This document shows, one piece after another, positions 9,084-48,508 of a DNA stretch of 64,000 bases (positions are counted from its first letter, which is position 1; every line of letters begins with the position of its first letter). Location of the stretch: assembly GCA_044225365.1 (NCBI GenBank), contig JBGAIQ010000010.1, positions 93,095-157,094 of the forward strand, read 5' to 3'. Source of the stretch: Planctomycetota bacterium (lineage in GTDB: Bacteria > Planctomycetota > B15-G4 > JADJEK01). The notes under the pieces were generated by a model that ran no database searches, was not told the origin of the DNA, and saw only the letters and a list, made by a program, of their open reading frames with translations. Made by a program: the position numbers and the translations under genes.

Positions 9084-9095
9084 GATCGATCGACA

Positions 9096-12056
9096 TCACT
9101 CGATGAACAAGAACTCGCTGGTGTTGAACAGGACTCGACACGCGGCCGGCAAACCGTGACTCCCGACCAGTGTCTCGAACGCTTTGGCCTCCTCGGCGGT
9201 GGGCTCGCGCAGCAGCGTGAGCAAGAAGGCTCGTTGAATCTGCGCAGTCGGAGTCACCACTGTCGAAGCGATTCTCTCGGCGAGGAACTCCGAATGACGC
9301 AACACGAACTCGTCGTTGAACAATGCGAGCGACTGCAAGGCGGAGGCCGAGAAGCTTCGCGCGGGTGAGAGCAATCCCAGATCGGGGAAGTCGAGAGCCT
9401 CCATGAACGGATCGGCGATGCTGCGCCATACGACGCGGTAGATGCTGCGTCGTCGCGCCGCCGGCGAGCCCCAATCGAAGTTCGCGTAATCGAGGATCGG
9501 CGTCGATTGCGGTCCGGGCCTCGACGTGAACTGCGCCACGCCAGGTCCTCCCATCGTGAGGTCGATCCGCCCGCTGATCGCGAGCACGCTGTCGCGAATC
9601 GCATCGGCGTCGAGCCGTCTTCGATTCATGCGCCACAGCAAGCGATTGTCGGGATCGACTGCGATCGCGGAGGCATTCGCGATCGACGAGCGACGGTAGG
9701 CTTCGCTCGTCACGATGAGGCGATGGAGCGCTTTCAACGACCCGCGCGCATCGTCGCGGAACCACACGGCGAGCCAGTCGAGGAGATCGGGATGCGAGGG
9801 GACACCACCCATGCGACCGAAGTCGCTTGGCGTGTCGCAGAGGCCGACTCCGAAGTGGTACTGGAAGACCCGGTTCACGATGCTGCGCCAGGTCAGCGGG
9901 TTCTTCGGATCGGCGATCCAATCGGCGAGAGCGGCGCGCCGCGCGCCTTCGTCCTTCCCATCGGCGAGCGCGAAGCGAGCGGGCAGCGCGGTCACGGCGG
10001 AGAGTGCGCCGGGACCGACCTCGGGCCCGGGCTTGTCGAGCTCTCCGCGCTTCAACACATGGATCACGCTCGGGCTCGCGATCGTGACGACGCCCCGCTC
10101 GTTCTCCGCGCAGCGCGAGGCTGCCCACACCTTCTTCTGCGGCGGCAGGCTCGCGAGTTCGTCGCGCGTTCGCGCATGGAGCACGTCGCCCGCGAGCGCG
10201 ACGCGCTGATCTTCGGACCGTTGCGACGCAGGAATCCGAAGGACCGCCTCTGCGGCGCTCTCGATCGCCTCGAGAGGCGCGGTCGGTCCATTCGCCGCGG
10301 AGAGCTTGAAGCGACCGAGGAGGTGGCCGCGTCCTTGGAGCTGTCGCAGGGTGATCGCGAGTCTCGTCTCCTTGTCGACGACGAGCGGCTCCTTCAGTTC
10401 GAGGACTGCGTGATGCGGCGTTCCGACCTCCGGATGGATCGCCCACGAGGTCGAGCGATCGGCGTCGATCGCCTTCGCGACGCCGAATCCGCTCTGCTCG
10501 AAATCCGCGGTCGCGCGACGGAGCGATACGACCTCGGGCGCTGAGGCATCCTTCGAAAACGCTTCGATCTCGATCGAGCTGAGATGGAGGTTGCCGTTGC
10601 TCGCCCGGCCCGGCCCGCGCGCGGGGAGGGAATCATCGGTCATCAGATCGAGTCGCAGCGCGGTGATCCGCTCGAGCTTGCTCGTCGCCGTGATGGTGAT
10701 CGTGTCCGTGTCCGGCGTCGGGCCGCTCGAGAGGAGCGAACCATCGGGCAGTCGTTCGAGACGACAGCCCTCCGCCGATACGAAGGAGTCCGGTACGAGC
10801 GTCTCCCAGGAAGCTGCGGTGGCCCGCGTCGCCTCCCATTCTTCGACGATCGCCGAGTTCTCTCGCGACAGTAGGACCGTGCGATCCCGGCGGACCACCG
10901 CCGCCTCGAGCTCGTTCGCGAGGCGGCGTCGCTTGGAGACGACCGGATCGACGTCGTACGCGATGTCACCACGTCCGATGCCCGCGAAGTCGGCCTGAAG
11001 CGCGAAGTAGTCCTCCTGCGTGATCGGATCGAATTTGTGGGCGTGGCAGCGCGCGCAGTTCGCCGTCGTGCTCACGAACGCCGCCATCGTCTGGGTCACG
11101 AGATCATCGCGATCGAAGTAAGCAAAGCTGGTGGGAGCCGTAGCGGCCGCGCTGCTGTCGTAGTTGCCCGCCCCGAGGAACCCGAGAGCGGGAGTGAGTT
11201 GCGTCTCCTCGGGATAGAAGACGTCGGTCGCCAGTTGCTCGCGAACGAAGCGGTCCCACGGCGTATCGCGATTGAACGAGTCGATCACGTAGTCGCGGAA
11301 TGGCCACGCGTTCGGGCGCAGGTCGTCGTGTTCGAAGCCGTGCGTGTCGGCGAAGTGGATGGTGTCGAGCCAATGACGCGCCCAGCACTCCCCGTAGCGC
11401 GGAGAGTCGAGCAGTCGGTCGACGAGCTTCTCGTAGGCCGAAGGGTCCGGATCGGCGACGAAGGCGGCGACGTCCTCGGGGGAAGGCGGCAGCCCGGTGA
11501 GGTCGAGCGTGAGGCGACGCATCAGTGTGCGGCGATCCGCCGAAGCGACGGGCGCGATCCCGGCCGCGAGAAGACGCTCGCGGACGAATGCGTCGATGGG
11601 ATGCTCTGCGAGCTTCGGCACGCTCGGACGCACCAGCGGTTTCAGCGACCACGAATCGCCGCTCGGCCTCGTATCCGTGACTCTGGGATCGGGTGCGCCG
11701 AGTTCCACCCAGCGTCGCAGCACTTCGATCTCGGCATCCGCGAGTGGCGCCTTCGGCGGCATGCGATGTTCGGCGTCCGACCACGTCACCATCTTGATGA
11801 GGAGGCTCGCATCGATGTCGCCCGGGACCACGGCGGGCCCCGAGTCTCCTCCGCGCTCCCAGCCCGAACGCGAGTCGAGCGTGAGCCCGCCCTTCATCTC
11901 GCCGGACGAATGCGAGTGGCACTCGAAACAGTCGCGTTCGAGCAACGGCACCACTTTCGTCGCGAAGAACTCGTCGGCGCGGCCGGTGCGTGCATCGACC
12001 GAAGGGGCCGTCGCGATGAGGACGGCGCAGGAGACGATGATCCGAAACCGGCTCAT
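9096..12056 (-). CDS. PSD1 (DUF1553)/DUF1549 and planctomycete cytochrome c domain protein
   Basis: CFECH and CARCH heme motifs; HPIDAF, RRLTLDLTGLPP, YGECWARHWLD, NPLTWRSIVNRVFQYHFG, SHPDLLDWLA, RRSIY; GGAGG RBS; adjacent to DUF1501 gene. Confidence 0.93.
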   Translation of the reverse strand: MSRFRIIVSCAVLIATAPSVDARTGRADEFFATKVVPLLERDCFECHSHSSGEMKGGLTLDSRSGWERGGDSGPAVVPGDIDASLLIKMVTWSDAEHRMPPKAPLADAEIEVLRRWVELGAPDPRVTDTRPSGDSWSLKPLVRPSVPKLAEHPIDAFVRERLLAAGIAPVASADRRTLMRRLTLDLTGLPPSPEDVAAFVADPDPSAYEKLVDRLLDSPRYGECWARHWLDTIHFADTHGFEHDDLRPNAWPFRDYVIDSFNRDTPWDRFVREQLATDVFYPEETQLTPALGFLGAGNYDSSAAATAPTSFAYFDRDDLVTQTMAAFVSTTANCARCHAHKFDPITQEDYFALQADFAGIGRGDIAYDVDPVVSKRRRLANELEAAVVRRDRTVLLSRENSAIVEEWEATRATAASWETLVPDSFVSAEGCRLERLPDGSLLSSGPTPDTDTITITATSKLERITALRLDLMTDDSLPARGPGRASNGNLHLSSIEIEAFSKDASAPEVVSLRRATADFEQSGFGVAKAIDADRSTSWAIHPEVGTPHHAVLELKEPLVVDKETRLAITLRQLQGRGHLLGRFKLSAANGPTAPLEAIESAAEAVLRIPASQRSEDQRVALAGDVLHARTRDELASLPPQKKVWAASRCAENERGVVTIASPSVIHVLKRGELDKPGPEVGPGALSAVTALPARFALADGKDEGARRAALADWIADPKNPLTWRSIVNRVFQYHFGVGLCDTPSDFGRMGGVPSHPDLLDWLAVWFRDDARGSLKALHRLIVTSEAYRRSSIANASAIAVDPDNRLLWRMNRRRLDADAIRDSVLAISGRIDLTMGGPGVAQFTSRPGPQSTPILDYANFDWGSPAARRRSIYRVVWRSIADPFMEALDFPDLGLLSPARSFSASALQSLALFNDEFVLRHSEFLAERIASTVVTPTAQIQRAFLLTLLREPTAEEAKAFETLVGSHGLPAACRVLFNTSEFLFIE

Positions 12057-16661: not shown

Positions 16662-17669
16662 TCAGCGATCCTTGAACCGGAATGCCTTGTCGAGCGCCGT
16701 GAACGGCTTGCCGTCGAGTTCGGCGTAAGGGTAGATGAAGAAGTTCAAATGCTCGCCCGTTTGCCGCGGCTCGAGATCGATGTCACGCCCTCGCGTGAAT
16801 GCGATGCGATTCTCGGTCAGGTTGCCGAAGTAGTAATCCGCGACGTCCTTCTTGCCGGCGTCGAGTGCCTTGTCCGCCTCGGAGGCGTCGACCGGCACCC
16901 AGCCCGTGTTCTTTACATAGAACTCGGCCCAGCAGTGGTAGCCCTTGACCTCTCCCTCTCCGCGGGCTTCTGGCAGCGGAAATCCGATCGTGAATCGCGT
17001 GGGAATGCCCTTCGATCGTGCCATCGACATGAACATCGCGTGGAAGTCGGTGCAGTTCCCGTACCCGCTCGCGCAGGCGAATTCCGTGCTGCCCTTGCCC
17101 CACCCCTCGCCCTCCTTCGAGTAGCGCATCTTCTCGAGGACTTTGCGATAGATCTTGTCCGCGGCGTCGACCGTACCGGTCGCGTCTTTCGTCGCGTCGG
17201 CCGCCATCTGCGCCGTCGGCCCGCCGATCGGGGCCAGCTTGTCGCCGAGCAGGTCGCGAGGGTGCGGTTCGTCGGCGAACATCGACCCCTTCAAGTCGCC
17301 GATGCGCTCGACGATGTCGACGTCGTATTCGGCCGTGATCTCGCACGGTTTCAACTTGTCGCCCTCGAGGAGGAAATGCGCCATCTTGTTTCCCGAGCCG
17401 CCTTCGACGCGGATGTCCGGCGGAACGGGGCCCTGGATCCGCGAGTCCTTGACGAGTTGTTCCGGCGTCGATTGTGGCATCGGCAGCCAGAGGTCGAGCC
17501 GCTTCGCGCCGGCGGGGGCCTCCTTCACCTTGGCCACATAGGTGAAGGTCACGCTGCGCTGCTTCGCGCCCTCGCGGACGACGAGCTGCGGAGACGCGCC
17601 GGGAAGTGGAATGCTGCTGCATCCCGCAAGGGCGAGGATCGCAGCCGCGTAGGAAACCTTCGAACGCAT
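16662..17669 (-). CDS. Transglutaminase-like lipoprotein
   Basis: Lipobox LAGC; [21 protein letters not shown] catalytic triad motifs. Confidence 0.88.
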
Positions 17670-17821
17670 GGAATCTCCTCTTCGGATGGAATGGGTTGGC
17701 GTCGGTCGATCCTCGTCGATCGATCAGGGCGGGCGCGCGAAGGGATGACACCCCTGACGTCACCGCCCAGCCGCGTTATACCGTTTCTTGGAGCGCGCCT
17801 CGACCGTACGATGAGTTCGCC

Positions 17822-18616
17822 ATGCACGCTTACCTCGAACTCCTCCGCCACATCGAGAACCACGGCACGAAGAAGCTCGACCGCACCGGTGTCGGGACTC
17901 TCTCGGTGTTCGGCTACCAACTGCGCTGCGACCTCGCGAAGGGCTTCCCGCTCCTCACGACGAAGAAGGTCCACCTGAAGTCGGTGATCCACGAACTTCT
18001 GTGGTTCCTCAAGGGATCGACGAACGTCGCCTACTTGAAGCAGAACGGAGTCACGATCTGGGACGAGTGGGCCGACGACCGTGGCGAACTCGGGCCGGTC
18101 TATGGCAAGCAATGGCGATCGTGGGAATGCAAGGACGGGCGGACCGTCGACCAGATCGCACAGGTCGTGGACCAGATCCGGAAGAACCCCGACTCACGCC
18201 GCCACATCGTGTCGGCCTGGAACGTTGGTGAGATCGACAAGATGGCGCTCCCGCCCTGCCACACGCTCTTTCAGTTCTACGTCGCGAATCAGAAGCTGTC
18301 ATGTCAGCTCTACATGCGCAGCGCCGACTGCTTCCTCGGCGTCCCATTCAATATCGCGTCGTACGCACTGTTCACGATGATGATGGCGCAGGTCACCGAT
18401 CTCGCACCGGGCGACTTCGTCCTCACGATCGGCGACGCGCATCTGTATCTCAACCATCTCGAACAGGTTGCGCTCCAGCTCACGCGCGATCCACGGCCGC
18501 TGCCTACGATGAAGCTCAATCCCGCCGTGAAGTCGATCTTCGACTTTACCTACGAGGACTTCACCCTCGAGGGTTACGACTGTCATCCCGCCATCAAGGC
18601 GCCCATCGCCGTCTGA
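17822..18616 (+). CDS. thyA: Thymidylate synthase
   Basis: [69 protein letters not shown]. Confidence 0.98.
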
Positions 18617-18632
18617 AGCGGAGGCACTCGCG

Positions 18633-19133
18633 ATGAAGGTCTCGCTCGTCGTCGCCATGGCCAGGAACGGCGTCATCGGTCGCGACGGAAAGCTGCCGTG
18701 GCACCTCCCTGACGATTTGAAGCGCTTCAAGGCCACGACCGTGGGCCGCGCCGTCATCATGGGTCGCAAGACCTTCGAATCGATCGGAAAGGCCCTCCCG
18801 AATCGCCAGAACATCGTGATTACGCGTCGCGGCGAACTCGCGACGGCCACCGCGCAGGGCTGCGACGTCGTGGCGTCGTTGGAGGAGGCGCTCGCCCGGG
18901 TGCTCGTGCGCGACGAGTGCTTCGTGATCGGCGGCGGCGAGATCTACCGCGCCGCGCTCCCTCGAGCGGACCGGATCCTGTTGACGCAGGTCGACGCCGA
19001 TGTGGAGGGCGACGTCCGATTCCCGCCGTTCGACGCGAAGGAATGGACCGAAGTCGCCTGCGAATCCCACCCGGCCGATGAACGGCATGCGTATGCGTTC
19101 GCTATCGTGACGCTCCAGCGAACGACGGGTTGA
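18633..19133 (+). CDS. folA: Dihydrofolate reductase
   Basis: NGVIG, LPWHLPDDLKRFK, IMGRKTFESI, LPNRQNIV, VIGGGEIY, GDVRFP; GGAGG RBS directly after thyA. Confidence 0.97.
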   Translation: MKVSLVVAMARNGVIGRDGKLPWHLPDDLKRFKATTVGRAVIMGRKTFESIGKALPNRQNIVITRRGELATATAQGCDVVASLEEALARVLVRDECFVIGGGEIYRAALPRADRILLTQVDADVEGDVRFPPFDAKEWTEVACESHPADERHAYAFAIVTLQRTTG

Positions 19134-19248: not shown

Positions 19249-20799
19249 TCAGCGCAGGACGCGGACCTCGAGCTTCGTGATGCGCATCTGCGCGCCGGTC
19301 GGCACGATGAGTCCGAACGCCCCGCGGCGCTGCATCGTCCACGGGATGTCCCAGTCGAGGAGGGGAACGTCGTTGCCTTCGGTCTTTACGAGCAACTTGC
19401 TGCCGATCATCGAGGCCGTGACGTGCACCGCCTGGTCGGCCGGGAATTTCGAGTCGTCGGGGATGAGGAACGTCGGCACCGTTTGGTCGACGTTGCGACC
19501 GACGCGGTAACCCGTGAGGAGCGTGCCGGCACCGCGGGTGATCACCATATCGACGACGAAGTCGCGCCACTTCTCCTTGTCGCCGACCGTCATGACGGCC
19601 TTGACCTTCTGGCCCTTGCTCTCGTCGGGGCCGATGAGGGTCATGACGCCGCCGTTGGTCGCGTGCGAGAAACCCGCCAGTTCGTCCGTACAGTTCCAGT
19701 CCTGCTTCACCGCGTCCGCGAGCAGATCTCGCCGCGGGGCGGCCGCGATCTTCGCGTCGGTGAAGAACTGCTTGCAGTATCCATCCGACTCCGCGATCGT
19801 CTGCTGGAAGATCGTCTCGAAGCTCGACTGCGCGGCGGCGTCCTTGTCGTTCGCGGCCTTCTCGAGCAACGCACGGATCTCGTCTTCGGCGTTCTTGTAC
19901 TTCTCGAGGATGCCCTTGTCGTCGGTCGGGTTCTGCGTCGCAAAGCCCTTCGCATCCGACTGCAGCTTCTGGGCGTAGGTCTGGTTCACCGACTTGCGAA
20001 TCGCCTTGAGACGCGCCTCGCCGTCGGGCAGAGCGCCAACCTTCGACTCGAGACGATCGATCTTGCGGCGAATCTCGACGAGTGCCGGAAGCGGCTGCAG
20101 GATCGCATCGCGACCGAGAGTCTCGACCTCGAGCAATGCCTTCTGGATCTCGCTCACTTCCATGTCGCGTTCGAGGGTCGCCTTCGCACGGGCCGCGAGG
20201 TTCGACATCTCGCCCGAGATCTCCGTACCGCTCCAGAGTTCACGATCCGCGTTGTACCGCGCGATCAGGGTTTGGGCGTCGCTCGGCTTCGCCATATCGA
20301 GCGCTCGCATCTCCTTGATGAAGCCGTCGATCTTCGCTTTGTAGTCCTTTGCTTCCTTCTCCTGCGCCGCGACCTTCATGTTGCGATAGACCCATACGCC
20401 CACGCAGCCAAGGGTGACGAAGAGCGCGATGACGAGACCGATCTTCGACGCGGTGTTGAGGAGCGGCTTGGGCTCGCGGCGATGCGGCACTCGTCGGCCT
20501 TCGTTGCCGGCGCGGTCATCGCGATGCGCGCGCTCGCCGCGGCGCTGTTCGGGCTCGGCACGCTTCGCGGCGGGACGTTCGGCCCGCGCGGGCGCGGGCG
20601 CCGCGGCCTTCGGCTTCGGTGGCTCGGCGACGGCGGCCGTGGGCTGCGGCTTCTGGGCTCCACCCGCCGCATTGCGCTTCGCGGCTTCCTTGTCGCGACG
20701 GCGCTTCTCGGTGCAATCCGCGCAGAGGATTCGCGACGATGCGACTTCGGCATCGGGCTTCTGCTTGAAGAGAGTTCCGCAGTTTTCGCAGGTGAGCAC
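19249..20799 (-). CDS. Bitopic membrane protein: N-terminal Zn-ribbon, Ala/Pro linker, TM helix, helical and beta-rich periplasmic region
   Basis: CENCG...CADC at the N-terminus; TM IGLVIALFVTLGCVGVWVY; GAGG RBS and GTG start. Confidence 0.8.
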   Translation of the reverse strand: MLTCENCGTLFKQKPDAEVASSRILCADCTEKRRRDKEAAKRNAAGGAQKPQPTAAVAEPPKPKAAAPAPARAERPAAKRAEPEQRRGERAHRDDRAGNEGRRVPHRREPKPLLNTASKIGLVIALFVTLGCVGVWVYRNMKVAAQEKEAKDYKAKIDGFIKEMRALDMAKPSDAQTLIARYNADRELWSGTEISGEMSNLAARAKATLERDMEVSEIQKALLEVETLGRDAILQPLPALVEIRRKIDRLESKVGALPDGEARLKAIRKSVNQTYAQKLQSDAKGFATQNPTDDKGILEKYKNAEDEIRALLEKAANDKDAAAQSSFETIFQQTIAESDGYCKQFFTDAKIAAAPRRDLLADAVKQDWNCTDELAGFSHATNGGVMTLIGPDESKGQKVKAVMTVGDKEKWRDFVVDMVITRGAGTLLTGYRVGRNVDQTVPTFLIPDDSKFPADQAVHVTASMIGSKLLVKTEGNDVPLLDWDIPWTMQRRGAFGLIVPTGAQMRITKLEVRVLR

Positions 20800-23686: not shown

Positions 23687-24778
23687 TTACTTTTTCTGAG
23701 TCAGAAACTTCGAGTTAGGGAAAGACTTCTTCAACTCCGCCCAGCGGTCATTGCTGCGCTGGCGGTACTGATTCTTGGCATCGTCCGCGGTCTCGAGATC
23801 GGCGAGGAACTGAAACGCCGTGGCGGCTCCCGCCATCGAACGCTCATACTCGGAACTCGGTTCACTCGCAGACGGAGTGTATTGCACGACTCCGCGCAGA
23901 TAGGCGAAGACGGACTCCAGGATGGCATCCGAGCTGCGCGCTTTCTTGCCCTTCTCGAGCAGGATGTCGCCGATGCCGTTCCAGGCCTGCGCGAGTGCGC
24001 GAGCCGGAAGATCCTGCGTGACGATCGCGCGATAAGCCTTCTCGGCGTCATCGACCTTGCCGCCCGCCTGATCGCAGCGCGCCGCGCCGATCTGGCCCTC
24101 GGCGACCAGCGCCGCACGCGTGTCCTTCATCGCGGCGACGGCGCGATAGTCGGCCGCGGCCTTGTCGAGCTTGCCCGAGAGCTCCGCGACGCGCGCGCCG
24201 AGGAGCTTCATCTCGGTGTCGAATCCGGCCGGGAGACCCGCGGCCTTGCCATCCTTGCCGGCCTTGTCGACGATCGCCTGCGCGGCCGCCGCGTCCGGCT
24301 TGGCCAGCGCGGCCTCGACGCCGAGTCGCGTGACATCGACGACGTAGCGGCCCGCGGGGAACTCCGTGCGCAAACGGTCCGCGGCGGCATTCGCCTCGTC
24401 CATCTGTCCGGCGCGGTAGAGGGCCGCGGCCTGACAGAAGAGGGCGCGTTGATGCAGCACGGGGCGCAGCTTCTTGTCGTCGGCCAGCGACTTCAGGATC
24501 TGCGACGCGCTGACCGCATCGCCGGCGCTCAGGGTCTTCATCGCGTCGTCGATCTTCTCGCCACCTTCGTAGGTGATCGAGTCGACCTGGTCCCACGGGA
24601 TGTCGAGCTTCTTCTTCGCCGCCTCGAACTGGAGGACGGCGTAGTCCTCGGACTTGATCTTGCCCTGCTGGGCCTGTCCGTCCTTGGTGCGAACGGTGTC
24701 GTCCGCGAGCGCCGAGGGCGCGAGACTCAGGGCGAGTCCCGAGCACGTCACGAACCAAGCCAACATCACTGTCTTCAT
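23687..24778 (-). CDS. Secreted TPR protein
   Basis: Signal peptide ending ALA-DD; small beta domain DTVRTKDG..QGKI; Ala-rich TPR-like helices; GGAG RBS. Confidence 0.82.
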   Translation of the reverse strand: MKTVMLAWFVTCSGLALSLAPSALADDTVRTKDGQAQQGKIKSEDYAVLQFEAAKKKLDIPWDQVDSITYEGGEKIDDAMKTLSAGDAVSASQILKSLADDKKLRPVLHQRALFCQAAALYRAGQMDEANAAADRLRTEFPAGRYVVDVTRLGVEAALAKPDAAAAQAIVDKAGKDGKAAGLPAGFDTEMKLLGARVAELSGKLDKAAADYRAVAAMKDTRAALVAEGQIGAARCDQAGGKVDDAEKAYRAIVTQDLPARALAQAWNGIGDILLEKGKKARSSDAILESVFAYLRGVVQYTPSASEPSSEYERSMAGAATAFQFLADLETADDAKNQYRQRSNDRWAELKKSFPNSKFLTQKK

Positions 24779-24807
24779 GCGTCCAACTCCGCACCGTGCG
24801 GGATTCA

Positions 24808-27687
24808 TTACTTCGTGACCTTGGTGGCGATGAACTTTGCGAGCGCAACGAACTTATCGCGTAGGCCGTACTTGTTTCCGTCGTAGTCTTGCGAGGTGCG
24901 CTCTACGGCGCGGATCGCGATGTCCGCCTGGTCGTAGATGCCGAGGTCGGCAAGGCACTGGATTTGACCGTACTTGGAATGCCACCAAGCCTCGTAGTCC
25001 TGCCCGACGCTGCGGCAAACCGTCTCGAAGATCTCGCGAGCATGCGAGATGCGATCGTCCTGCTTCTCGCTCTTGCCGATCTCGCGCTCGGCGACGCCCC
25101 ACTCGACGTAGGCGAGGAGCAACTCCTTCTTTGCCGTGAGCGTCGCGGGCTTGATGACGTGCGTCGTCGGATCGACGATCGCTTCGTTCTCGAACAGATG
25201 CTCGAACTGCTTCGCGGCGTCTTCGAAGCGACCGAGGAAGCCGAGCGAGCGAGCGAGCTTCACTTCGGTGCGATAGGACGGCGCGCGGTCGTAGATCGCC
25301 TTGTAGACCCGAACCGCCGACTCGAAGTAGGCCTTGTTCGCGATCTTCTTGAGATCGACGTTGGCCGACGACGTGACCGAGTCGGGCAGATCGTTGAGGA
25401 CGAACGCGAGCGCGTAGACGCGCTCGGCGACTTCGGAGAGCGCGGTCGTGGAGAACGAACGGCTCGCGAGCTGCGGCCGGACGCTCGCTTCGTAGTAGCG
25501 AGCCGCCTTGTCGTACAGCGCGCGCGCTTCCTTCGACTTCGCGTCCTTCGCCACGAGCTCTCCCGCGCGCTTGTCGAACGCGCGAGCGAGGATGCCGGCA
25601 GCCGCGCCCGTCGCGGGCGCATCCGGCTGACCCGCCATCAGCGTGGCGAGCAGCTTCTCGGCATCGTCGAGCTTGCCGAGCTTCTGGAGCGCTTGAATAC
25701 GCAGACGCCACACGGAGGTCAGCTTGTCGGCGTCGCCCTTGGCGTCGGCCTCCGCGCCGTCGAGCAGCGCGAGCGCGTCCTTGTCCTTCGCCATGACCTC
25801 CATCAGGTACAGATTGGCGAGGGAGACTCGGGCCTCGAACGAGACGCGGTCGAGATTGGCGAGCGCGTTGGAGTCGAGGGTCTTCTGACGCGCGGGAGCG
25901 ATCGCGTCGATCGACTTCTTGAGGTACTCCTCGCTCTTCTGGAGCATCGCCTTCGCCTCGGCGTCCTTCTTCTCCGAGACGAGGCGCTGCCCGTCGCGGA
26001 GGAAGCAGTAGCCGGCGCGATACATCGCTTCTTCGTAAGCGGAGGCGCCCGCGAGGACCTTCATGTACGCGGTCGCCGCGTCTGCGTAGCGCTTCTCCGT
26101 CTCGAGCTGTCGCCCTTCGATGAGCTGCGCCTGGCTCGCGGCGGGATGCTTCGGATACTCGCGCGCGATCCGCGACAATCGCTCATCGATTCGGCGCTTG
26201 TAGAACGGCTTCTTCTCGAGCGCCTTCAATTGCATGTCGACCTGGATCGCCTGCCACAGTCCTTCGGGCGCGTCATCCGTGCCCGCGGCGATCACCGCGA
26301 GCTGGTCGTACGCCGCTGCGGCTTCGTGCAGGAAGTTCTTGCGTTGATAGAGGGAGCCGAGGCGCAGCAGTGCCTGCGCTCCGCCCGGCTTCGAGCCCTG
26401 GCGGCCCGGATCGTAGATCGCCTTGCGACAGGTCTCGATCGCCTCGTCGATCTCGCCGCGCGAAGCCTGGGCGTCGGCGAGCTGGAGGAGGTCGGTGACA
26501 CCCAGGGCCGGAGCCGCGCCGCCGCCGCCGCCCTTCGCGAGGATCTCGCGAGCGCGCGCCGCGAAGCGGCCGGTCTTGTCCTGATCCATGATCTCGCGAG
26601 CGGACTTCTCGGCCTGATCGGTCTTGCCGGCCGCGTTCAGCGAGTCGACGAGCGCGAGCTTCACCGCGTAGTAGGCGTCGGGATTGGTGTCCGGCACGGT
26701 CGTCTTGATGAAGTCCTCCGCCGTCGCGATCGCCTCGGCGGGCTGCTTCAGCGTGTCGAGGAGCTTCATCTTCTGCACGACGCCGTTGGAGACGATCTCG
26801 ATGCCCTCGGGCGGCATCTCGTAGCGGCCCTTGTTGTCCTGCGGCCAGCTCTCGCGGACCTTGATCGCCTCGTCGAGCGTGAGCAATGCGTCGTCGTTCT
26901 TGCCGAGTTCGATCTCGCAGAGGGCCTGCAGGACCTGGCCCTCGAAGCAGACGAGCGTATCGTTGTGATCGAGCGTGAACTGCTGGAAGGCTTCGATCGC
27001 CTCACCCAGGATCTGCTCGCGGCCGAGATCGTTCGGCTTGTAGAGCAGGCTGCGGAAATAACGCAGACGGGCGAGGTTGTACTTCGCCATCACGTACTGC
27101 TGCTCGACCGTCGCCGCGTTCTTCTCGTCGAGCGTCTGACTGCGCAGGTCGTCGAGCGTCGCGACTTCCGCGATCAGTCCCTTCATGCCGTCGAGGAACA
27201 TCTGCTTCGCTTCGCCCTCGAGCTTCGCGACCTTCGCAGCATCCTTCTCGGCCTTGATCGTTGCGATCGTCGCCTCGGCGAGGAGGCGGTAGGCGAGCGG
27301 CATGTTGGCGCGCAGCGTCGGCGTCACCGGCGAATCGGGGTTCTTCGCGATGAAGTCCTGGCGAGCCGTCAGATTCGCGCGCAGGACTTCCATGCGCTTC
27401 TGCGGATCGGGATCGCGCGATGCCTTGTCGGCGTCGACGTCGAGCATGAGCGCGGAGGCACCCATACGTTCGGCGTCGGAGGAGTCCGGACTCTTGAGGA
27501 GCGCGTCGCAAACCTTCGAGGCGAGATCGTGATACCCCACCTCGAGCAGACGCCGAGCGAAGTACACGTCATCGCGGCCGAGGATGCCGGTCGGATCTCC
27601 GGCGAGCGCGCCGGAGGACATCGCGAACGCAGCGAGGCACAGCGACAAGCCGGCCTGCGCCGCGCGCAGGCTGCGCGAAGCGGACAT
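24808..27687 (-). CDS. Large secreted TPR/alpha-solenoid protein (~960 aa)
   Basis: Signal peptide ending ALA-GD; repeated TPR-like units (ALLRLGSLY, AMYRAGYCF, ARVSLANLY); alternative GTG start 27699 overlaps the upstream stop. Confidence 0.85.
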   Translation of the reverse strand: MSASRSLRAAQAGLSLCLAAFAMSSGALAGDPTGILGRDDVYFARRLLEVGYHDLASKVCDALLKSPDSSDAERMGASALMLDVDADKASRDPDPQKRMEVLRANLTARQDFIAKNPDSPVTPTLRANMPLAYRLLAEATIATIKAEKDAAKVAKLEGEAKQMFLDGMKGLIAEVATLDDLRSQTLDEKNAATVEQQYVMAKYNLARLRYFRSLLYKPNDLGREQILGEAIEAFQQFTLDHNDTLVCFEGQVLQALCEIELGKNDDALLTLDEAIKVRESWPQDNKGRYEMPPEGIEIVSNGVVQKMKLLDTLKQPAEAIATAEDFIKTTVPDTNPDAYYAVKLALVDSLNAAGKTDQAEKSAREIMDQDKTGRFAARAREILAKGGGGGAAPALGVTDLLQLADAQASRGEIDEAIETCRKAIYDPGRQGSKPGGAQALLRLGSLYQRKNFLHEAAAAYDQLAVIAAGTDDAPEGLWQAIQVDMQLKALEKKPFYKRRIDERLSRIAREYPKHPAASQAQLIEGRQLETEKRYADAATAYMKVLAGASAYEEAMYRAGYCFLRDGQRLVSEKKDAEAKAMLQKSEEYLKKSIDAIAPARQKTLDSNALANLDRVSFEARVSLANLYLMEVMAKDKDALALLDGAEADAKGDADKLTSVWRLRIQALQKLGKLDDAEKLLATLMAGQPDAPATGAAAGILARAFDKRAGELVAKDAKSKEARALYDKAARYYEASVRPQLASRSFSTTALSEVAERVYALAFVLNDLPDSVTSSANVDLKKIANKAYFESAVRVYKAIYDRAPSYRTEVKLARSLGFLGRFEDAAKQFEHLFENEAIVDPTTHVIKPATLTAKKELLLAYVEWGVAEREIGKSEKQDDRISHAREIFETVCRSVGQDYEAWWHSKYGQIQCLADLGIYDQADIAIRAVERTSQDYDGNKYGLRDKFVALAKFIATKVTK

Positions 27688-27695
27688 GGGCGACC

Positions 27696-29522
27696 TCACT
27701 TCTTCTCGCCTTCCTTCTTGGTGTCGTCGGCCTTCGGCGGCTCGGCCTTTGGCGCTTCAGCCTTCGGAGCCTTCTTCTCGCGCGCCGAGCTGCCGAAGGC
27801 GTTCTCGTACCGGTAGTACACCTCGAGCGTCAGGATGTTGATCGCCGTCGTGTAGATGCGGCTCGCCTCGTAGCTCCAGCGATCGCGACCTAGCCAGGCG
27901 CCCATCGAGCAGCTCTTCTCGGTCTTGTCCTGGAGTCCGAGCAGCACCTTGTTCATCGCCGTGTTCCAGGCGTTCCAGTGCCGGTTCGTCTTCTTCGGGC
28001 TGTCCGGACCGTCGACCTGATTGAGCGCGAGGGTCGCGTAGTACCAGTAGTAGTAATCGACCGAGAGTCCGTCATCCGAGGCCGCCGGGAGGTTCTCCGG
28101 CTTGATGAGCTGATCGGCGGCAGCGACGAGGAAGGGATCGTCCGGATTGTGCTCGAGGAAGATCCGGATGCACATGTTCACGGCGCCCATCGAGCTGCCC
28201 GTGTAGTACTTGTACTGATCGTTCGGACCGGTGAGCTTCTGCGTCGCTTGATCGGCGCGCTGATAGCCCGAGAGACCGCTCGGCTGGCCCATCGCTTTCG
28301 CGAAGTTCATGGCGCCTTCCTTGCACTCGGGCGGCACGTTGAGGCCCGACAGCTCGGCGGACTTCAGCGCCATCACGACCCAGCCGGTCACCGAGGTGTC
28401 GGAGTCGTTGAGCGCTTCGTTGAACTTCGCGTCGGTCGCATAGTCGGAGCGGCGATCCTCGATGTACTTGCGGGTGTCGTAGCGCCAACCCCAACGCTTG
28501 CTGACGTCACCGGGAGCTGGTCGCTGCGCGCCCGCGAGGAAGTCGACGGCCTTCTGCGCCGGGACCTTCCAGTAGCGGTTCTTCGTCAGACCATAGGCTT
28601 CGCAGAGCGCGAGCGTCGCGATCGCTTCGTTGTACATGAACGTTCCCGCCGCGCTGAACGAGCCGTCCGGCTGCTGGCGATCGGTCAGGTACTGCAGGCC
28701 CTTCTTCACGACCTCGCCGAGGCGATACTTCCTCGCCGTGACCGGGTCGACGATGTACTGCTTCGACTCATGGGTGTAGCCCGAGCCGAGGAAACAGAGG
28801 AGCGCGAGACCGGTGAGACCTTCGTCGAGGCGGTCGGAGCGATCGTCCTCGGACGTGAAGCAGTGACCCTCCTGGTTGCACTTGTCCGCACAACCGCGGG
28901 TCGTCCACGAACCGTCGTCGTTCTGGTGGCGGAGCAGCCAGCGCAGACCGTTCAGCACGGCTTCTTCGGTCGCTTGCGTGGGGCCGCCGACGCGACCCTT
29001 CTTGCCGCCGCCGAGACGGCCCGCGAATGCCGACGGCCGACCGGTTCCGAAGTGACCGCCCGTACCGACACCCATCGAGGTGCCACCCGTGAAGCCGGAC
29101 GTGTTGGAGAGCGCCGTCGGATCCCCTCGCGGCTGCGTGAGGTCCTGATCCGGAACCTCCATCGTCGGCGTGAAGACGTTCTCGTCGAAAGTGACGACTT
29201 CGGCTTCCTGGTTCTCCGGGATGGCCTTGCGGTCCACCTTCTCCTCGGGAGGAGGTGGTGGCTCGTCCGCTTCCTTCGCCTGCTTCAGGTTCATCACCAC
29301 GGGCGGAGCTTCCACGGCGGCCTTCTGCGAGCCGACGTAGCTCATGCCGAGGATCGCGATGACCGCCAAGTGGACGGCCACCGAGATCACGACCCAGGGT
29401 GAGTTCCGAACGAAGTTGCGGATGACTTCCATCCGCGTCTGGGGAGCGTTGAGGCGCTCCTCGAGAGTCATGTCGTCCGCATCATCCATCGGCTCGGAAT
29501 CGTCATCGTTTCGACGGGCCAT
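27696..29522 (-). CDS. Prenyltransferase/squalene-oxidase-repeat (terpene cyclase-like toroid) protein with TonB/TolA-like SxxxH TM anchor and Pro/Gly linker
   Basis: TM PWVVISVAVHLAVIAILG; EPPPPPEE; Gly-rich stretch; GLRWLLRHQNDDGSW, GLQYLTDRQQPDGSF, DTSVTGWVVMALKSA, YYYWYYATLAL, TTAINILTLEVYYRY. Confidence 0.88.
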   Translation of the reverse strand: MARRNDDDSEPMDDADDMTLEERLNAPQTRMEVIRNFVRNSPWVVISVAVHLAVIAILGMSYVGSQKAAVEAPPVVMNLKQAKEADEPPPPPEEKVDRKAIPENQEAEVVTFDENVFTPTMEVPDQDLTQPRGDPTALSNTSGFTGGTSMGVGTGGHFGTGRPSAFAGRLGGGKKGRVGGPTQATEEAVLNGLRWLLRHQNDDGSWTTRGCADKCNQEGHCFTSEDDRSDRLDEGLTGLALLCFLGSGYTHESKQYIVDPVTARKYRLGEVVKKGLQYLTDRQQPDGSFSAAGTFMYNEAIATLALCEAYGLTKNRYWKVPAQKAVDFLAGAQRPAPGDVSKRWGWRYDTRKYIEDRRSDYATDAKFNEALNDSDTSVTGWVVMALKSAELSGLNVPPECKEGAMNFAKAMGQPSGLSGYQRADQATQKLTGPNDQYKYYTGSSMGAVNMCIRIFLEHNPDDPFLVAAADQLIKPENLPAASDDGLSVDYYYWYYATLALNQVDGPDSPKKTNRHWNAWNTAMNKVLLGLQDKTEKSCSMGAWLGRDRWSYEASRIYTTAINILTLEVYYRYENAFGSSAREKKAPKAEAPKAEPPKADDTKKEGEKK

Positions 29523-42623: not shown

Positions 42624-42648
42624 GGGCGCACAAACCGTGCGCTCCTAC
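42624..42648 (-). repeat. GTAG-type REP
   Basis: Minus strand GTAGGAGCGCACGGTTTGTGCGCCC; near-identical to copies at 19197 and 45344. Confidence 0.8.
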
Positions 42649-43922
42649 GGCATCAGGATGTCGACGGGATCCTGGTCTGCCATCTTCACGGCGAGTTCGC
42701 GGCTCCCCGTAGCGCCGGAAGACTCCGCGAGCAGGACGAGGTACTGCACGCCAAGCCACTTCACCTCGAGTTCGAAGCGGCCTTCTGCGTCCGTCACGGC
42801 GAACGACTCCGCGAAGTTCTGCAAGTCCTCGTCGGGGTCGTTCTCCGCCGCCGACTTCCCCGAAACCGCACAGACCTTTCGATGGGCGATCGGAGCGCCA
42901 TCCCGCGTGCGAATGCGCCCGCGGATCGATCCATGCGTCGAGATCTCGATTCGACACGGAACCTCGACGCCGCCCTCGACTCGGAGCGAGGTGCTCGTTT
43001 CTGGCCAGTTCGGCAAGAAAGGGATCCCCGAACTCTCTGGGATCGTGACGCGGACCGACCCGGGTTCGACCTGTGAGATTTCGAATCCCCCGTCGGCATC
43101 GGAGTACACGCGGCCAGAGAGTCTTGCCCCCTGCCAACGAACTTCCGTGCTGCATCCGATCCCGTTGACGGTGACGCGGCCCACGATCTTCTCGAAAGCT
43201 TCGGGGTACACCGCTTCGACTCGCATCAGATCGCGTGCGCGGAAATCCTCGAGTGCGATCGCGTGGCGAAGCATCGCTCCATCGCGGCGCTCGAACTCGA
43301 GCGCTCTTGCGTAGAGCGGATCAGCATCGCGAATCTCGAAGCGTCCGGCTGTATCGGTCATCGCCTCGAGATCCGTCGAGACTGGCGTCGCCGAGCCCGA
43401 GATCGGGAACGACCCGGAGGAAAACGGGATCGATTCCTCGCGCGCGAACACCCGGCCGCCCCTCGCAAACGGGGCGCGAACGCGCACGTTCGCCATGGGA
43501 GCCCCGCGCGCATCCAGGACCGTGCCCTCGATCCGCAACGCGTTGGGCACGACGAGGGCGACGTCGCCGACCTCCCTCCAGCGCGCGACCTCGACACGCA
43601 AGAACGATCCTTCCACGTGAGACGGCGACGCGGCGACGAAGAGCCAACGGTCGAAGTCGCCGGCGGAATGACGAATCTCGAACGTGCCATCGAACGCAGT
43701 GCCCGATCGCGCGACGCGGTCGCCGAGGAAGCGACAGAGATCGACGAAGACGTTGGGAACCGGGTCACCGTTTTCATCGACGACGCGACCGTGGATCACG
43801 ATTTCGTCGCCGGCCGCGCGAGAGTCCGTGACGGCCAACGGCCCGATCGAGGATTGCGCGCAGCCCACCGCCACGCACGAGCCGAGCACGATCGCGAGCA
43901 AGTTGATTCCGCTCGACACCAT
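42645..43922 (-). CDS. Carboxypeptidase-regulatory-like (prealbumin/Cna-B) repeat lipoprotein, paralog 1
   Basis: Lipobox-like AVGC; repeats GRVVDENGDPV, GTVLDARGAPM, TDTAGRFEI, GRVTVNG, KWL. Confidence 0.75.
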   Translation of the reverse strand: MVSSGINLLAIVLGSCVAVGCAQSSIGPLAVTDSRAAGDEIVIHGRVVDENGDPVPNVFVDLCRFLGDRVARSGTAFDGTFEIRHSAGDFDRWLFVAASPSHVEGSFLRVEVARWREVGDVALVVPNALRIEGTVLDARGAPMANVRVRAPFARGGRVFAREESIPFSSGSFPISGSATPVSTDLEAMTDTAGRFEIRDADPLYARALEFERRDGAMLRHAIALEDFRARDLMRVEAVYPEAFEKIVGRVTVNGIGCSTEVRWQGARLSGRVYSDADGGFEISQVEPGSVRVTIPESSGIPFLPNWPETSTSLRVEGGVEVPCRIEISTHGSIRGRIRTRDGAPIAHRKVCAVSGKSAAENDPDEDLQNFAESFAVTDAEGRFELEVKWLGVQYLVLLAESSGATGSRELAVKMADQDPVDILMP

Positions 43923-45179
43923 TCAAGTCCCCTTCGCCGACTCGCGCATCGCGACCAGTTCGAGATCGGTCATGCCCGCTCGAACGACGAAGCGCGGATG
44001 GAGATACCCCGGCTCGGCGACACATACGATGTAGTCGGTCGCGAGCCACTTCACCGGGATCTTGAATCGGCCCCGTTCGTCCGTGAGAACACTTGCCTCG
44101 ACGTGAGAGAACAGAGTCGGATCGTCCCACGAGCTGGGGGACTCGTCGTACGCGTTACTTCCGGGGATGGGCACCGCGATGATCCGAATGCCCTGGATCT
44201 TCGCGCCCCGCATGGCAAACAGTCCACCCTCGATCTCGCCATGCGTTGCCAGCGCGAAGTCGTGTTCCACCCGCTCGTCGTTATGAACCTGGACGACTGC
44301 CGAGTCCTCGGGGAAGCCGGGAAGCGACACGTCGTCCGCCTCGGTCCCCGTGAGAGCGAGACCCTCCGGGATCGCGTGGCGAGGCGTCAGTTCGACTCGC
44401 CCTGCTTCGACTCCTTCGATGCGAACCCACCCTTCCTTCGACGCGCGCACGATTCCGCGCATCGATTCGCCTCGCCACTCGATGAAGGCGGGGATCGGGA
44501 CGTCGTTCAGAGTCACCTTGCCGACGATCGTGCCGACGGCCTCGGGAAGTCGGATCTCGACGATCCAGTCGCGTTCCTTCGTGGGCGGACTCCCGAGCTC
44601 TGCATGGAAGACCCAATTCCGCTCGGTACGGATCGTCGCCGTCGAGTCGAGAGTCTTCTTCACGTTCGAGAAATCGAATCGCCCGCTCGCGTCGGTCCTC
44701 GTCGCGAGTTCGGGCCCGAGCGCCGACGGAACCCAAACGTTGTGGGCGTATCCAGAGGGGATGACGACGTGTGCGTTCGCGGTGGGAGCGCCGCCGTGAT
44801 CGAGGACTCGCCCGGAGAGCCGCAGGGAACGCTCGACCTCGAGCCGAATGTCGCCGGTCGAATCGATGTTCGCGGCGAGCACGTCCTGGAACCCGCCCTT
44901 GCGAAACCATGGCGATGCCGCCACGGTGAACTTGCGCGACAGGCTTCGATCGACTCCGGCGAAGACGAACTCGCCATCTCGCAACGTCACCGTGCTCGCA
45001 ACGACCCGGTTCGTGTCGTCGAACAACTTCACGATCGCGTTCGATTTCGCCCATCCGTCTTCGTCGACGACGTGCCCCCACAATGTGCCGCTCGGACGCT
45101 CTTCGGGCGATCCCGAACACGCGAGGAAGACGAGCGACGGCGCCACTGCGAGCACGATCGCGATTTGCCATGGTCTCAT
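43923..45179 (-). CDS. Carboxypeptidase-regulatory-like repeat lipoprotein, paralog 2
   Basis: MRPWQIAIVLAVAPSLVFLAC lipobox; GHVVDEDG, GRVLDHGGAP, TDASGRFDF, GKVTLND, KWL. Confidence 0.78.
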   Translation of the reverse strand: MRPWQIAIVLAVAPSLVFLACSGSPEERPSGTLWGHVVDEDGWAKSNAIVKLFDDTNRVVASTVTLRDGEFVFAGVDRSLSRKFTVAASPWFRKGGFQDVLAANIDSTGDIRLEVERSLRLSGRVLDHGGAPTANAHVVIPSGYAHNVWVPSALGPELATRTDASGRFDFSNVKKTLDSTATIRTERNWVFHAELGSPPTKERDWIVEIRLPEAVGTIVGKVTLNDVPIPAFIEWRGESMRGIVRASKEGWVRIEGVEAGRVELTPRHAIPEGLALTGTEADDVSLPGFPEDSAVVQVHNDERVEHDFALATHGEIEGGLFAMRGAKIQGIRIIAVPIPGSNAYDESPSSWDDPTLFSHVEASVLTDERGRFKIPVKWLATDYIVCVAEPGYLHPRFVVRAGMTDLELVAMRESAKGT

Positions 45180-45298
45180 CGACGCTCTCCCACCCGTGAA
45201 TCGACCTGCATCGTCCGGTCCACGCGGGGTTGCGTCAAGCAAGCGATGTGTAACGACCGCCGCGCATCGCGGTTCCCGAACCCGCGTCGAATCCCAAC

Positions 45299-45368
45299 GT
45301 AGGGGTCGACGGCTGTCGACCCGTCTTACACCCGAAGCGACTCGGGCGCACAAGCCGTGCGCCCCTAC
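45299..45368. repeat. Inverted pair of GTAG REPs (REPIN-like doublet)
   Basis: GTAGGGGTCGACGGCTGTCGACCC (45299-45322) and reverse-oriented GTAGGGGCGCACGGCTTGTGCGCCC (45344-45368). Confidence 0.85.
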
Positions 45369-45668
45369 GAATCGAAATCGAGCGCTGCCAGATCGTTCAC
45401 GGTCGCAGCGCGATCGATCCATGCATCGAGCTTCGCGCCATCCGAGACGGCCCCGACCCAGGCGATGAGAGCCGCCGGCGCGGTTCCAAATCTCGCCGTA
45501 TCAACCATCGCGGGTACCTCCGATGCGAACGGCGATTGCCGCTCGTGCGGAGATCACGAAGCGCTTCGCGTCGAAGATTTGGGACGAACCGCGCCCCATG
45601 GCCCGCAACTGCCGAACTGCTCGCGGCTACGGGGGTTTTTGTCCCTGCGCGGCAGCTGCCCGCCGCGA

Positions 45669-47264: not shown

Positions 47265-47342
47265 GTGAACCCCCATCGACGATTCGTTGCGATGATGTTC
47301 GATCCGGAGAGACTCCCCGTCAAGGGGGCCCGTCGACGGAAA

Positions 47343-48497
47343 TCAACGCGTCACATTCGTGTATCGCTCATAAGTCTCGAGCGTCAGTACGTTGAGGGCC
47401 GTCGAATACACGGGTCCGCATTCTCGTGAAACTCGATCTTCCACGAGCCATCCGCCGTCGTCGCGTGAGCCCGTGACTCCATGCTGGAGTGCGAGGATCG
47501 TCTCGACGGTCGCGCTCATCCACGCCTCGAACCGCGCGCGCTCCGTCGGCGCGTCGGACTCGAACAGAACGAACCGCGCGAGCGTCGCGAAGTGCCAATA
47601 CGCGTAGTCGAAAGAACGAGCGGTCACATGCGCGACCGGCAGCTCCTCCTCATCGATCCGTCTCTCGACGCCGAGGCTTGCTCGGACCTCCGTGAGGTCG
47701 CGAAGCAGGAAGATCCGCGCGCACGCCGAGGCAGCCGCTGCCGCTGACCCGAGTCGCACGTCGACCGTGGGATCGTGGCGAGCGATTCCGAGAGCCAACT
47801 CGCGCGCGCGCGGAGGATCGTGAAGTCGGGCTCGTCTCGCACAGAACAACGCCAGTGCGACGATGCCATTCACGACCGGTTCGCGCGGGACCGTGGCGAG
47901 ATGATTGATCGCGCGTTGGGCGCCGTCGCGGAGCGACTCATTCGATGAGAAAGAAGAGGACTGGGAGAACGCGAGAACCTCGCAGAGCGCGAGCGTCGCG
48001 ACGGCGCCATTTGCGTGAAGGGCATCGTCCTGGCGGAACGAGCCGTCGGGCTCCTCATGGGCGAGGACGAAGTCGAGCGCGGATCTCGTGATCCTCGCCA
48101 ACTCGTACTTCGCGCCATCGAACGGGTCGATGAAGTATTGCTTCGAGTCGGGGCCGTATCCGTCGCCGAGGAACGCGAGGACGCACAGTGCGGTCGATCC
48201 GACGGCATGCGAATCGTCGCGGCTCCGCCACGATCCATCCTTGCCCTGATGACGCGCGAGCCAGCGCAGACCATTCAGAACGGCTTCCTCTGAATCTCGG
48301 TTCGGGTGAGTACGGCTCGTGCTTCCGTGTGCGCCCCGGAACGGCACTCGCGATCGAAAGACCGTGTCGTTCGCGTACCTCTCATTCGCATCCTCCGAGA
48401 GGAGCGGCGATGGAGGCGTCGTGGCGGGCGGCTCGCGGCAGGCAACAGCGATGAAGAGGAGAATCCCCATCGTCCATCGCCAGCCGCTCCTCGCCAC
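47343..48497 (-). CDS. Shortened prenyltransferase/squalene-repeat toroid paralog, probable lipoprotein
   Basis: ILLFIAVAC lipobox-like; EEAVLNGLRWLARHQGKDGSW, DYAYWHFATLA, YSTALNVLTLETYERY; start uncertain (48470/48497/48512). Confidence 0.75.
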   Translation of the reverse strand: MARSGWRWTMGILLFIAVACREPPATTPPSPLLSEDANERYANDTVFRSRVPFRGAHGSTSRTHPNRDSEEAVLNGLRWLARHQGKDGSWRSRDDSHAVGSTALCVLAFLGDGYGPDSKQYFIDPFDGAKYELARITRSALDFVLAHEEPDGSFRQDDALHANGAVATLALCEVLAFSQSSSFSSNESLRDGAQRAINHLATVPREPVVNGIVALALFCARRARLHDPPRARELALGIARHDPTVDVRLGSAAAAASACARIFLLRDLTEVRASLGVERRIDEEELPVAHVTARSFDYAYWHFATLARFVLFESDAPTERARFEAWMSATVETILALQHGVTGSRDDGGWLVEDRVSRECGPVYSTALNVLTLETYERYTNVTR

Positions 48498-48508
48498 CGG
48501 AACCTCTC

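Follow-up and report, generated by a model that had tools for sequence, protein, structure and literature searches.

We analysed a 64,000-nucleotide window of a Planctomycetota bacterium genome (GenBank assembly GCA_044225365.1, contig JBGAIQ010000010.1, positions 93,095 to 157,094), and focus here on an open reading frame (ORF) of 608 amino acids whose product, hereafter the toroid protein, carries a helical toroid behind a membrane anchor. Its gene is the first of a tight eight-gene cluster on the minus strand (successive spacings of -4, -1, 98, 4, 52, 20 and 49 nt; Table 1), overlaps by 4 nt the next gene, which encodes a large tetratricopeptide repeat (TPR) protein, and shares the cluster with the subunits of an ExbB-ExbD-type proton motor. 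The protein is probably a motor-coupled force transducer built in the manner of TonB and TolA, with a toroid as a new kind of head, a reading drawn from comparative evidence. An AlphaFold2 model based on 48 relatives (mean predicted local distance difference test (pLDDT) 79.7, predicted template modelling score 0.74) divides it into five parts, namely a cytoplasmic tail, one transmembrane (TM) helix, a disordered linker, the toroid and a charged C-terminal tail. All the strings quoted in an earlier note on this DNA are present in the 608-residue translation.

Membrane anchor and linker

The TM helix opens with a Pro-Trp pair (P42 and W43) and includes the segment ISVAVHLAVIAIL (residues 46-58), which gives the spacing S47-x3-H51 and places L58 at S+11. 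Across 48 full-length relatives (alignment A2, 31-59% identity), P42 is kept in 46 sequences, W43 in 40 and I46 in 34, while 30 have Ser and the other 18 Ala at position 47, and position 51 is His in 43 and Asn in one. These five columns (P42, H51, 47, W43 and I46) have the lowest entropy of the TM region, and because all other columns between residues 44 and 64 drift at 2.16 bits or more, the conserved positions of the helix cluster towards its cytoplasmic side. Of the SHLS motif, the last two residues are not retained (L58 occurs in 17 of the 48); in TonB and TolA, the Leu and second Ser of the motif are the less conserved ones, according to a structural report (PMC12215075). The earlier note had identified this helix by its SxxxH motif and had made conservation of both residues a check on its proposal: the His stands in 43 relatives, with a single Asn, whereas the Ser does not hold as a strict residue and is really Ser or Ala.

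In the same source, cryo-electron microscopy of the E. coli complexes has Ser16 and His20 of TonB, and Ser18 and His22 of TolA, contacting a Ser and a Trp of ExbB/TolQ TM1 near the cytoplasm (PMC12215075). Six planctomycete proteins with a TonB_C domain were compared, five of which have an N-terminal PW-x2-S-x3-H, A-x3-H or S-x3-H and the sixth a Thr at the His position; a Ser or Ala followed by His is therefore what a real TonB looks like in Planctomycetota. The toroid protein further resembles TonB in its single N-in TM helix, with PW and then S-x3-H near the cytoplasmic end, in the Pro-rich spacer behind it and in its exbB-exbD neighbourhood, although the spacing from PW to Ser is three residues here and four in TonB. 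A sub-clade of toroid proteins (loci L070, L072, L073, L079 and L084) has Asn for the TM His and PY for PW. The exchange of TonB His20 for Asn leaves full function in E. coli, as stated in a Postle-laboratory preprint (10.1101/2021.12.08.471779), so that a substitution tolerated in TonB occurs naturally among the toroid proteins.

The linker (116 residues) contains 13 Pro, 17 Gly and 16 Asp or Glu, with a Pro-rich and acidic first half, including EPPPPPEE at residues 87-94, and a Gly-rich second half. The Pro-rich then Gly-rich tether that had been pointed out before is thus present, and it is disordered in the AlphaFold2 model. Within it, relatives share the motifs IDRxAIP (about 96-102), EAE[LV]V (about 106-110), GDP (133-135) and GGTxxGVG (about 146-153), and R98, P102, G133, P135, G151, G153 and G156 are invariant in alignment A1. 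EAE[LV]V is a candidate "motor box", for which AlphaFold2 gives an isolated bridge at residue 108 only. A complex prediction of linker residues 64-182 with the periplasmic parts of ExbD1 or ExbD2, made without controls, scored 0.00 in both runs and weighs neither way. A language-model search for look-alikes of residues 25-180 returned same-family fragments only, with scores up to 0.82.

Toroid head

The head has an (alpha/alpha)6 fold with QW-like repeats, with HQNDDGSW at residue 199 and QQPDGSF at residue 283. It is distantly homologous to the repeat domain of cyclases, because the family profile matches squalene-hopene cyclase at an E-value of 6e-14, in an alignment that spans cyclase residues 393-566. 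Scores against the established family models remain below their cut-offs (21.9 against 26.1 bits for Pfam PF13243, and 34.8 against 322.7 for TIGR01787), and the toroid has no DxDD, the sole D.DD match in the protein being residues 14-17 in the cytoplasmic tail. The proposal that DSDTS, at residue 373, replaces the catalytic DxDD was not borne out, as HMMER sets it opposite cyclase residues ~549-566, a repeat element and not the catalytic motif. The broader claim of the earlier note, that this is not a lipid cyclase, agrees with the missing DxDD and the sub-cut-off scores. Its warning that automated annotation would mislead was also fair, since source annotations name relatives "prenyltransferase/squalene oxidase repeat-containing" and the Pfam score of the toroid protein lies below that family's own cut-off.

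Thirteen residues of the head (W195, H199, Q200, W206, W346, D375, S377, D489, Y491, Y492, W493, Q531 and R571) are invariant in all 48 relatives, and this conserved aromatic and acidic cluster fits a predicted site for ligand binding or catalysis. A thioester domain of the kind found in alpha-2-macroglobulin was considered and rejected, the Cys of LCEAYG not being conserved and no CGEQ-type motif being visible by eye in alignment A1. Among 21 relatives that consist of the toroid alone or are fused differently, without the TM-linker module, 20 start with a hydrophobic, signal-like segment (a call made with a crude hydropathy measure, the one exception looking fragmentary), and four of these 20 show a lipobox-like pattern. 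Two cysteines, C215 and C538, do not vary among 22 close relatives. Given the signal-like N-termini and the two invariant cysteines, the toroid head is likely periplasmic.

Gene cluster and its conservation

The position of the toroid gene was followed with tblastn, using proteins of the window as queries and one genome per species, in 76 related loci, all from metagenome-assembled genomes of Planctomycetota. In 49 of the 68 loci whose flank reaches 1.5 kb or more, the next gene downstream encodes the large TPR protein. Where at least 5.6 kb of downstream flank was available (55 loci), a same-strand ExbB gene is found downstream in 38, and a same-strand ExbB-ExbD-ExbD set upstream in three more (L080-L082), which makes 41 of 55 with ExbB on the same strand and bears out the co-occurrence with exbBD that the earlier note had asked for. 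One locus (L083) has matches to both TPR genes and to ExbD and none to ExbB, and in another (L078) the match is separated from the TPR gene by a second copy, and the flank ends first. Many loci hold two tandem copies of the toroid gene.

Table 1 Features of the toroid protein, its gene cluster and related loci; positions refer to the window unless a contig is named
Feature	Position	Strand	Description
Toroid gene	27696-29522	(-)	608-aa ORF, ATG start
Residues 1-41	29400..29522	(-)	Acidic N-terminal cytoplasmic tail, Arg just ahead of the membrane; low pLDDT
Residues 42-64	29331..29399	(-)	Sole TM helix, PW-x3-S-x3-H; AlphaFold2 helix with pLDDT ~89-94
Residues 65-180	28983..29330	(-)	Disordered linker, pLDDT mostly <60
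Residues 181-573	27804..28982	(-)	(alpha/alpha)6 toroid head, confident all-helical AlphaFold2 domain
Residues 574-608	27699..27803	(-)	Disordered Lys/Pro/Ala/Glu-rich C-terminal tail, varies among relatives
963-aa TPR protein	24808..27699	(-)	Signal-like N-terminus; Pfam TPR_14 4e-9; weak YbgF/CpoB match 1.7e-5
373-aa TPR protein	23687..24808	(-)	Signal-like N-terminus; weak Pfam TPR matches, all below cut-off; position conserved
ExbB/TolQ-type subunit, 239 aa	22869..23588	(-)	PF01618 3e-27
ExbD/TolR paralogue 1 (ExbD1), 177 aa	22331..22864	(-)	PF02472 5e-18; TM Asp23
ExbD/TolR paralogue 2 (ExbD2), 154 aa	21814..22278	(-)	PF02472 6e-14; TM Asp21
p314, 314 aa	20849..21793	(-)	Two TM helices flanking a periplasmic beta-barrel; AlphaFold2 pLDDT 78.9; no Pfam match
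516-aa zinc-ribbon membrane protein	19249..20799	(-)	N-terminal cytoplasmic CxxC...CxxC segment, one TM helix, periplasmic domain of ~370 residues; no Pfam match
thyA and folA	17606-19133	(+)	Thymidylate synthase and dihydrofolate reductase, side by side
FGE-sulfatase-family protein, 653 aa	29828-31789	(-)	Just upstream of the toroid gene; long Lys/Pro/Ala-rich C-terminal part
Second toroid locus	42645-52071	(-)	20 kb from the toroid gene
Toroid paralogue P0122, 584 aa	48509..50263	(-)	60% identical to the toroid protein; TM motif core near-identical, S and H kept
Toroid-only paralogue P0123, ~384 aa	47343..48497	(-)	GTG start at 48497; lipoprotein-like N-terminus; directly behind P0122
CarboxypepD_reg proteins	50437-52071, 45669-47276, 43923-45422, 42645-43922	(-)	Flank P0122 and P0123
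PMT_2 protein, 571 aa	52235-53950	(-)	Dolichyl-phosphate-mannose-type glycosyltransferase
Second ExbB-type motor locus L088	G000:C100:48000-66000, ~2818-10686	(+)	TPR(1017 aa)-ExbB-ExbD-~1190-1214-aa protein
Further cluster L095	G000:C73:1-14000, 315-10262	(-)	TPR(1016)-TPR(367)-ExbD-unknown(498)-toroid-toroid; contig start

Downstream of the motor genes, p314 follows ExbD2 in most linked loci, and its barrel gave weak matches to OB-fold and single-stranded DNA-binding proteins only (Foldseek against PDB, E-value ~1e-4). It was rejected as a TonB-like partner, having two TM helices, these weak OB-fold matches only and no conserved TM His among its orthologues. The 516-aa gene is the last conserved member of the cluster and was detected by tblastn downstream of p314, on the plus strand, in 29 related loci; a plus-strand ORF that overlaps it in the window matches only four loci, and these in antisense. 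No vWA gene was found further downstream, where thyA and folA mark the end of the cluster. On the other side, the FGE-sulfatase-family protein shows a weak similarity (5.6e-22, far below cut-off) to GldK/PorK, the ring lipoprotein of the type IX secretion system; five of the 76 loci have an antisense relative upstream, and three loci unlinked to a motor have a weak antisense match just downstream.

Motor subunits and their possible pairing with the anchor

The ExbB-ExbD1-ExbD2 motor looks active, judging from the residues retained by its subunits: the TM aspartates are invariant (Asp23 of ExbD1 in 30 rows, Asp21 of ExbD2 in 29), and ExbB keeps Thr161 and Thr194, the equivalents of the pore Thr ring in an HMMER alignment to TolQ chains. 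The TM1 Ser that would be contacted by the anchor corresponds to S55 of ExbB and is Ser in 39 of 42 orthologues.

We also compared the anchors with the ExbB proteins of the same loci (37 of the 42 rows, L020, L042, L056, L065 and L080 being left out for want of a TM state). The TM residue of the toroid protein and the ExbB contact position pair as His with Ser in 33 rows, Asn with Phe in three and Val with Ser in one. In the Asn-Phe rows (L070, L073 and L079) the TM1 contact Ser is replaced by a Phe flanked by Thr, and this pairing, found in a single lineage, may represent a compensated interface. At the ExbB residue S+4, anchors with Ser47 go mostly with a non-hydroxyl residue (8 against 2) and anchors with Ala47 mostly with Thr or Ser (21 against 6). 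These patterns hint at direct contact between the two proteins, and we treat them as leads and not as evidence.

Toroid proteins in the genome and the phylum

The assembly to which the window belongs is 94.3% complete and contains three MotA/ExbB-type loci, namely MotA-MotB, the cluster described here and a second ExbB-type locus (L088). The protein of ~1190-1214 residues encoded at L088 has a TM helix at its N-terminus, PD40 repeats and a TM hairpin with A-x3-H in the second helix; a Gly-, Ala- and Ser-rich linker of low complexity (~400 residues) and a toroid at the C-terminus complete it. Both ExbB-type motors of this genome adjoin toroid proteins with an [S/A]xxxH helix. At a further cluster (L095), PW...S-x3-H is present in both of two tandem toroid proteins; the search gave no ExbB match in this cluster, and its 498-aa protein, for which Pfam gave no match either, may be a divergent channel subunit. 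Within the window itself, the second toroid locus holds P0122 and P0123 among CarboxypepD_reg proteins, has no motor gene and lies near the PMT_2 protein.

In total, the genome encodes at least five toroid proteins with a TonB-type helix alongside its two ExbB-type motors, and no TonB was found. Searches for TonB_C, Plug and TonB-dependent barrel domains returned no match at an E-value of 0.01 or below, an absence that an incomplete genome cannot prove; in the same searches control matches were obtained in three of 14 genomes (E. coli, Caulobacter and Bacteroides). TonB_C is likewise found in none of three genomes of the window's own family. Across the phylum, 124 of 151 sampled genomes, and 77 of the 95 high-quality ones, encode relatives of the toroid protein (E-value of 1e-20 or below), and the toroid family comprises 1589 cluster representatives at an E-value of 1e-30 or below.

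Proposed mechanism and alternative interpretations

In the mechanism we propose, the toroid protein would be the force-transmitting arm of the ExbB-ExbD1-ExbD2 proton motor, laid out on the TonB/TolA plan. Its N-in TM helix would dock against the outer face of the ExbB pentamer by means of the pair formed by a small residue and His (S47 and H51) near the cytoplasmic end of the helix, and the disordered linker of about 115 residues would span the periplasm, where it probably contacts the periplasmic domains of ExbD through a conserved strand-prone motif. The toroid would grip a target in the envelope, for which an outer-membrane protein or lipoprotein, one of the co-encoded TPR proteins and a glycan are candidates, and rotation of the motor would then pull on this target. 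The analysis establishes the domain architecture, the conservation of the motif and of the operon, the fold and the absence of DxDD, and finds neither a TonB C-terminal domain nor TonB-dependent receptors in this genome; from these we infer the docking on ExbB, the ExbD contact, the periplasmic topology, the transmission of force and the nature of the target. The force-transducer inference, already made in the earlier note, is the best supported one, given the conserved [S/A]xxxH, the ExbB-ExbD-ExbD synteny, a toroid without DxDD, the export signals of toroid-only relatives and the lack of TonB_C matches in the same genome.

Several observations weigh against this interpretation. In the anchor, four of the 48 relatives have V, V, T and G in place of H51, and a helical-moment test over the whole TM helix was not significant, 3374 of 5000 permutations reaching the observed moment. 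A profile of the N-terminal module (alignment A3, 30 sequences) searched against PDB sequences, with E-values up to 10, matched no TonB or TolA chain, its sole match being a designed coiled coil; homology of the anchor to these proteins is therefore not demonstrated. On the motor side, at the site of the contact Trp in E. coli (V59 here), 26 of 42 ExbB orthologues have T, 5 V, 5 M, 3 L, 2 F and 1 S, and none has Trp, and the TM3 Pro position (V203 here) is V, T, I, L or F in this ExbB family, so that any docking must differ in detail from that in E. coli. A phylogeny-aware test of co-variation, on a tree of ExbD1, ExbD2 and the 373-aa TPR protein, left two to four independent contrasts (sign test p = 1). 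No ExbB is found nearby in 14 of the 55 loci, although at least nine of these 14 come from assemblies that also yield a linked locus, and the unlinked genes are on this ground second paralogues. In the head, the invariant D375, D489 and E308, together with the aromatic cluster, could equally form the active site of an enzyme. Finally, TonB_C is present in 110 of the 151 sampled phylum genomes; TonB_C and the toroid protein usually coexist, and the latter is therefore not simply a substitute for TonB.

The strongest alternative, to which we give clearly less weight than to a force transducer, is a membrane-tethered periplasmic enzyme or binding protein, acting for example on polysaccharide or peptidoglycan, in which the TM helix is an anchor and the protein serves one pathway with the motor and the TPR proteins but has no mechanical coupling to them. 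The invariant acidic residues D375 and D489 beside the aromatic cluster would suit such a role, as would the finding that the same head also exists without the TM module, as a secreted protein, a lipoprotein or a fusion with other domains, and the 14 loci with no neighbouring motor. A plain anchor, however, would not be expected to retain a small residue and, four positions on, a His (in 43 to 48 of 48 relatives) when the remainder of the helix varies. The linker, moreover, has invariant motifs, the unlinked paralogues keep the same TM motif, and this genome has ExbBD motors with no other candidate partner.

An unlikely alternative is that the toroid is an anchor or scaffold of the stator, binding the cell wall or a TPR protein in the way of MotB or Pal, so as to hold the ExbBD motor in place, with another protein of the cluster as the moving output. 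The cluster does encode four further conserved envelope proteins (the two TPR proteins, p314 and the 516-aa protein), and in its ExbD proteins Pfam recognises no domain that binds peptidoglycan, apart from ExbD itself. ExbD-type proteins nevertheless normally supply the periplasmic part of the stator, no other protein of the cluster has a TonB-like anchor, and an [S/A]xxxH helix marks a transducer and not a stator plug. That the protein is a true class II terpene cyclase or prenyltransferase with a membrane lipid as its substrate, in line with its automatic name, is very improbable: despite the profile match to squalene-hopene cyclase and the QW-like repeats, the toroid lacks DxDD, is a single toroid matching one limited stretch of a two-domain cyclase body, scores far below the Pfam and NCBIfam cut-offs and sits on a 116-residue tether, probably in the periplasm and away from the membrane face that cyclases use.

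Comparison with known systems

The proposed motor-coupled arm with its toroid head can be set beside four known systems. It differs from TonB in having no TonB C-terminal domain (no PF03544 match at an E-value of 0.01 or below), in a partner ExbB without the contact Trp and Pro, and in a genome where no Ton-box receptors were found. With TolA and the Tol-Pal system it shares the S-x3-H TM helix, an ExbB whose best PDB matches are TolQ chains (E-value 1e-8) and, as in systems with CpoB (YbgF), a co-encoded exported TPR protein, the YbgF match being weak; unlike TolA it has no TolA C-terminal domain and a linker that is disordered where that of TolA is helical, and unlike Tol-Pal the cluster has two ExbD paralogues and neither TolB nor Pal. 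Class II terpene cyclases (squalene-hopene cyclase, and single-domain cyclases such as PDB 8paj and MstE) have in common with it the (alpha/alpha)6 fold, the QW-like repeats and a distant homology, and differ by the DxDD general acid that the toroid lacks, by the long tether behind a TM helix, by the motor operon and by the sub-cut-off scores.

The closest parallel is with the vWA-headed force transducers of Williams-Jones et al. 2025 (PMC12204202), in which an SHLS helix is joined to a vWA head by a disordered linker that contains a "motor box"; they were sought beside motor genes in species without TolA and TonB, and have no known phenotype. They occur in bacteria of the Planctomycetes-Verrucomicrobia-Chlamydiae (PVC) group and in others, and in the PVC bacteria their genes adjoin a TPR gene, tolQ and two tolR genes (PMC12204202). 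As described in that text, the two types share a Ser/His TM helix, a disordered or Pro-rich linker, a globular head other than that of TonB and a neighbourhood of TPR, exbB/tolQ-like and two exbD/tolR-like genes. They differ in the head, a vWA/Rossmann domain in one and a toroid of ~390 residues in the other; in gene order, the toroid gene being first in its cluster and the vWA gene last (PMC12204202); and in the second TPR protein, p314 and zinc-ribbon TM protein that the toroid cluster adds. The text of the report, supplements aside, contains no mention of toroid, prenyltransferase, terpen- or squalene (PMC12204202). Our best reading of this comparison is that the toroid-headed type would be new, following the same plan as the vWA-headed transducers with a different head and gene order. 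A full-text literature search, with subscription journals and supplements outside its scope, found no description of an ExbBD or TolQR partner whose head is a toroid or resembles a prenyltransferase or cyclase.

Discussion

Proton motors of 5:2 stoichiometry drive three kinds of work, namely the rotation of flagella, TonB-dependent uptake and the maintenance of the envelope by Tol-Pal. A fourth output, through vWA heads, was proposed only in 2025 (PMC12204202). If the toroid protein is indeed a force-transmitting arm, it would represent another output of such motors, and one that is far from rare, and thousands of "prenyltransferase/squalene oxidase repeat" annotations would have to be re-labelled.

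More tentatively, and on balance doubtfully, these proteins may belong to a hitherto undescribed Ton/Tol-like trans-envelope machine present throughout Planctomycetota and probably in other PVC bacteria, in which paralogous toroid arms, whether plain, tandem or fused to a TolB-like propeller, share ExbB-ExbD1-ExbD2 motors, and in which the heads grip a glycan or an outer-membrane partner on giant TPR scaffolds. Such a machine, if real, could take over energised work in the outer envelope, including the uptake of large substrates and the tethering or remodelling of the envelope, and would matter most in lineages where neither TonB nor TonB-dependent receptors are found, as in the genome analysed here. 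A toroid-headed arm would also offer a handle on how energy is delivered to the outer layers of the cell in planctomycetes, whose envelope biology is still disputed.

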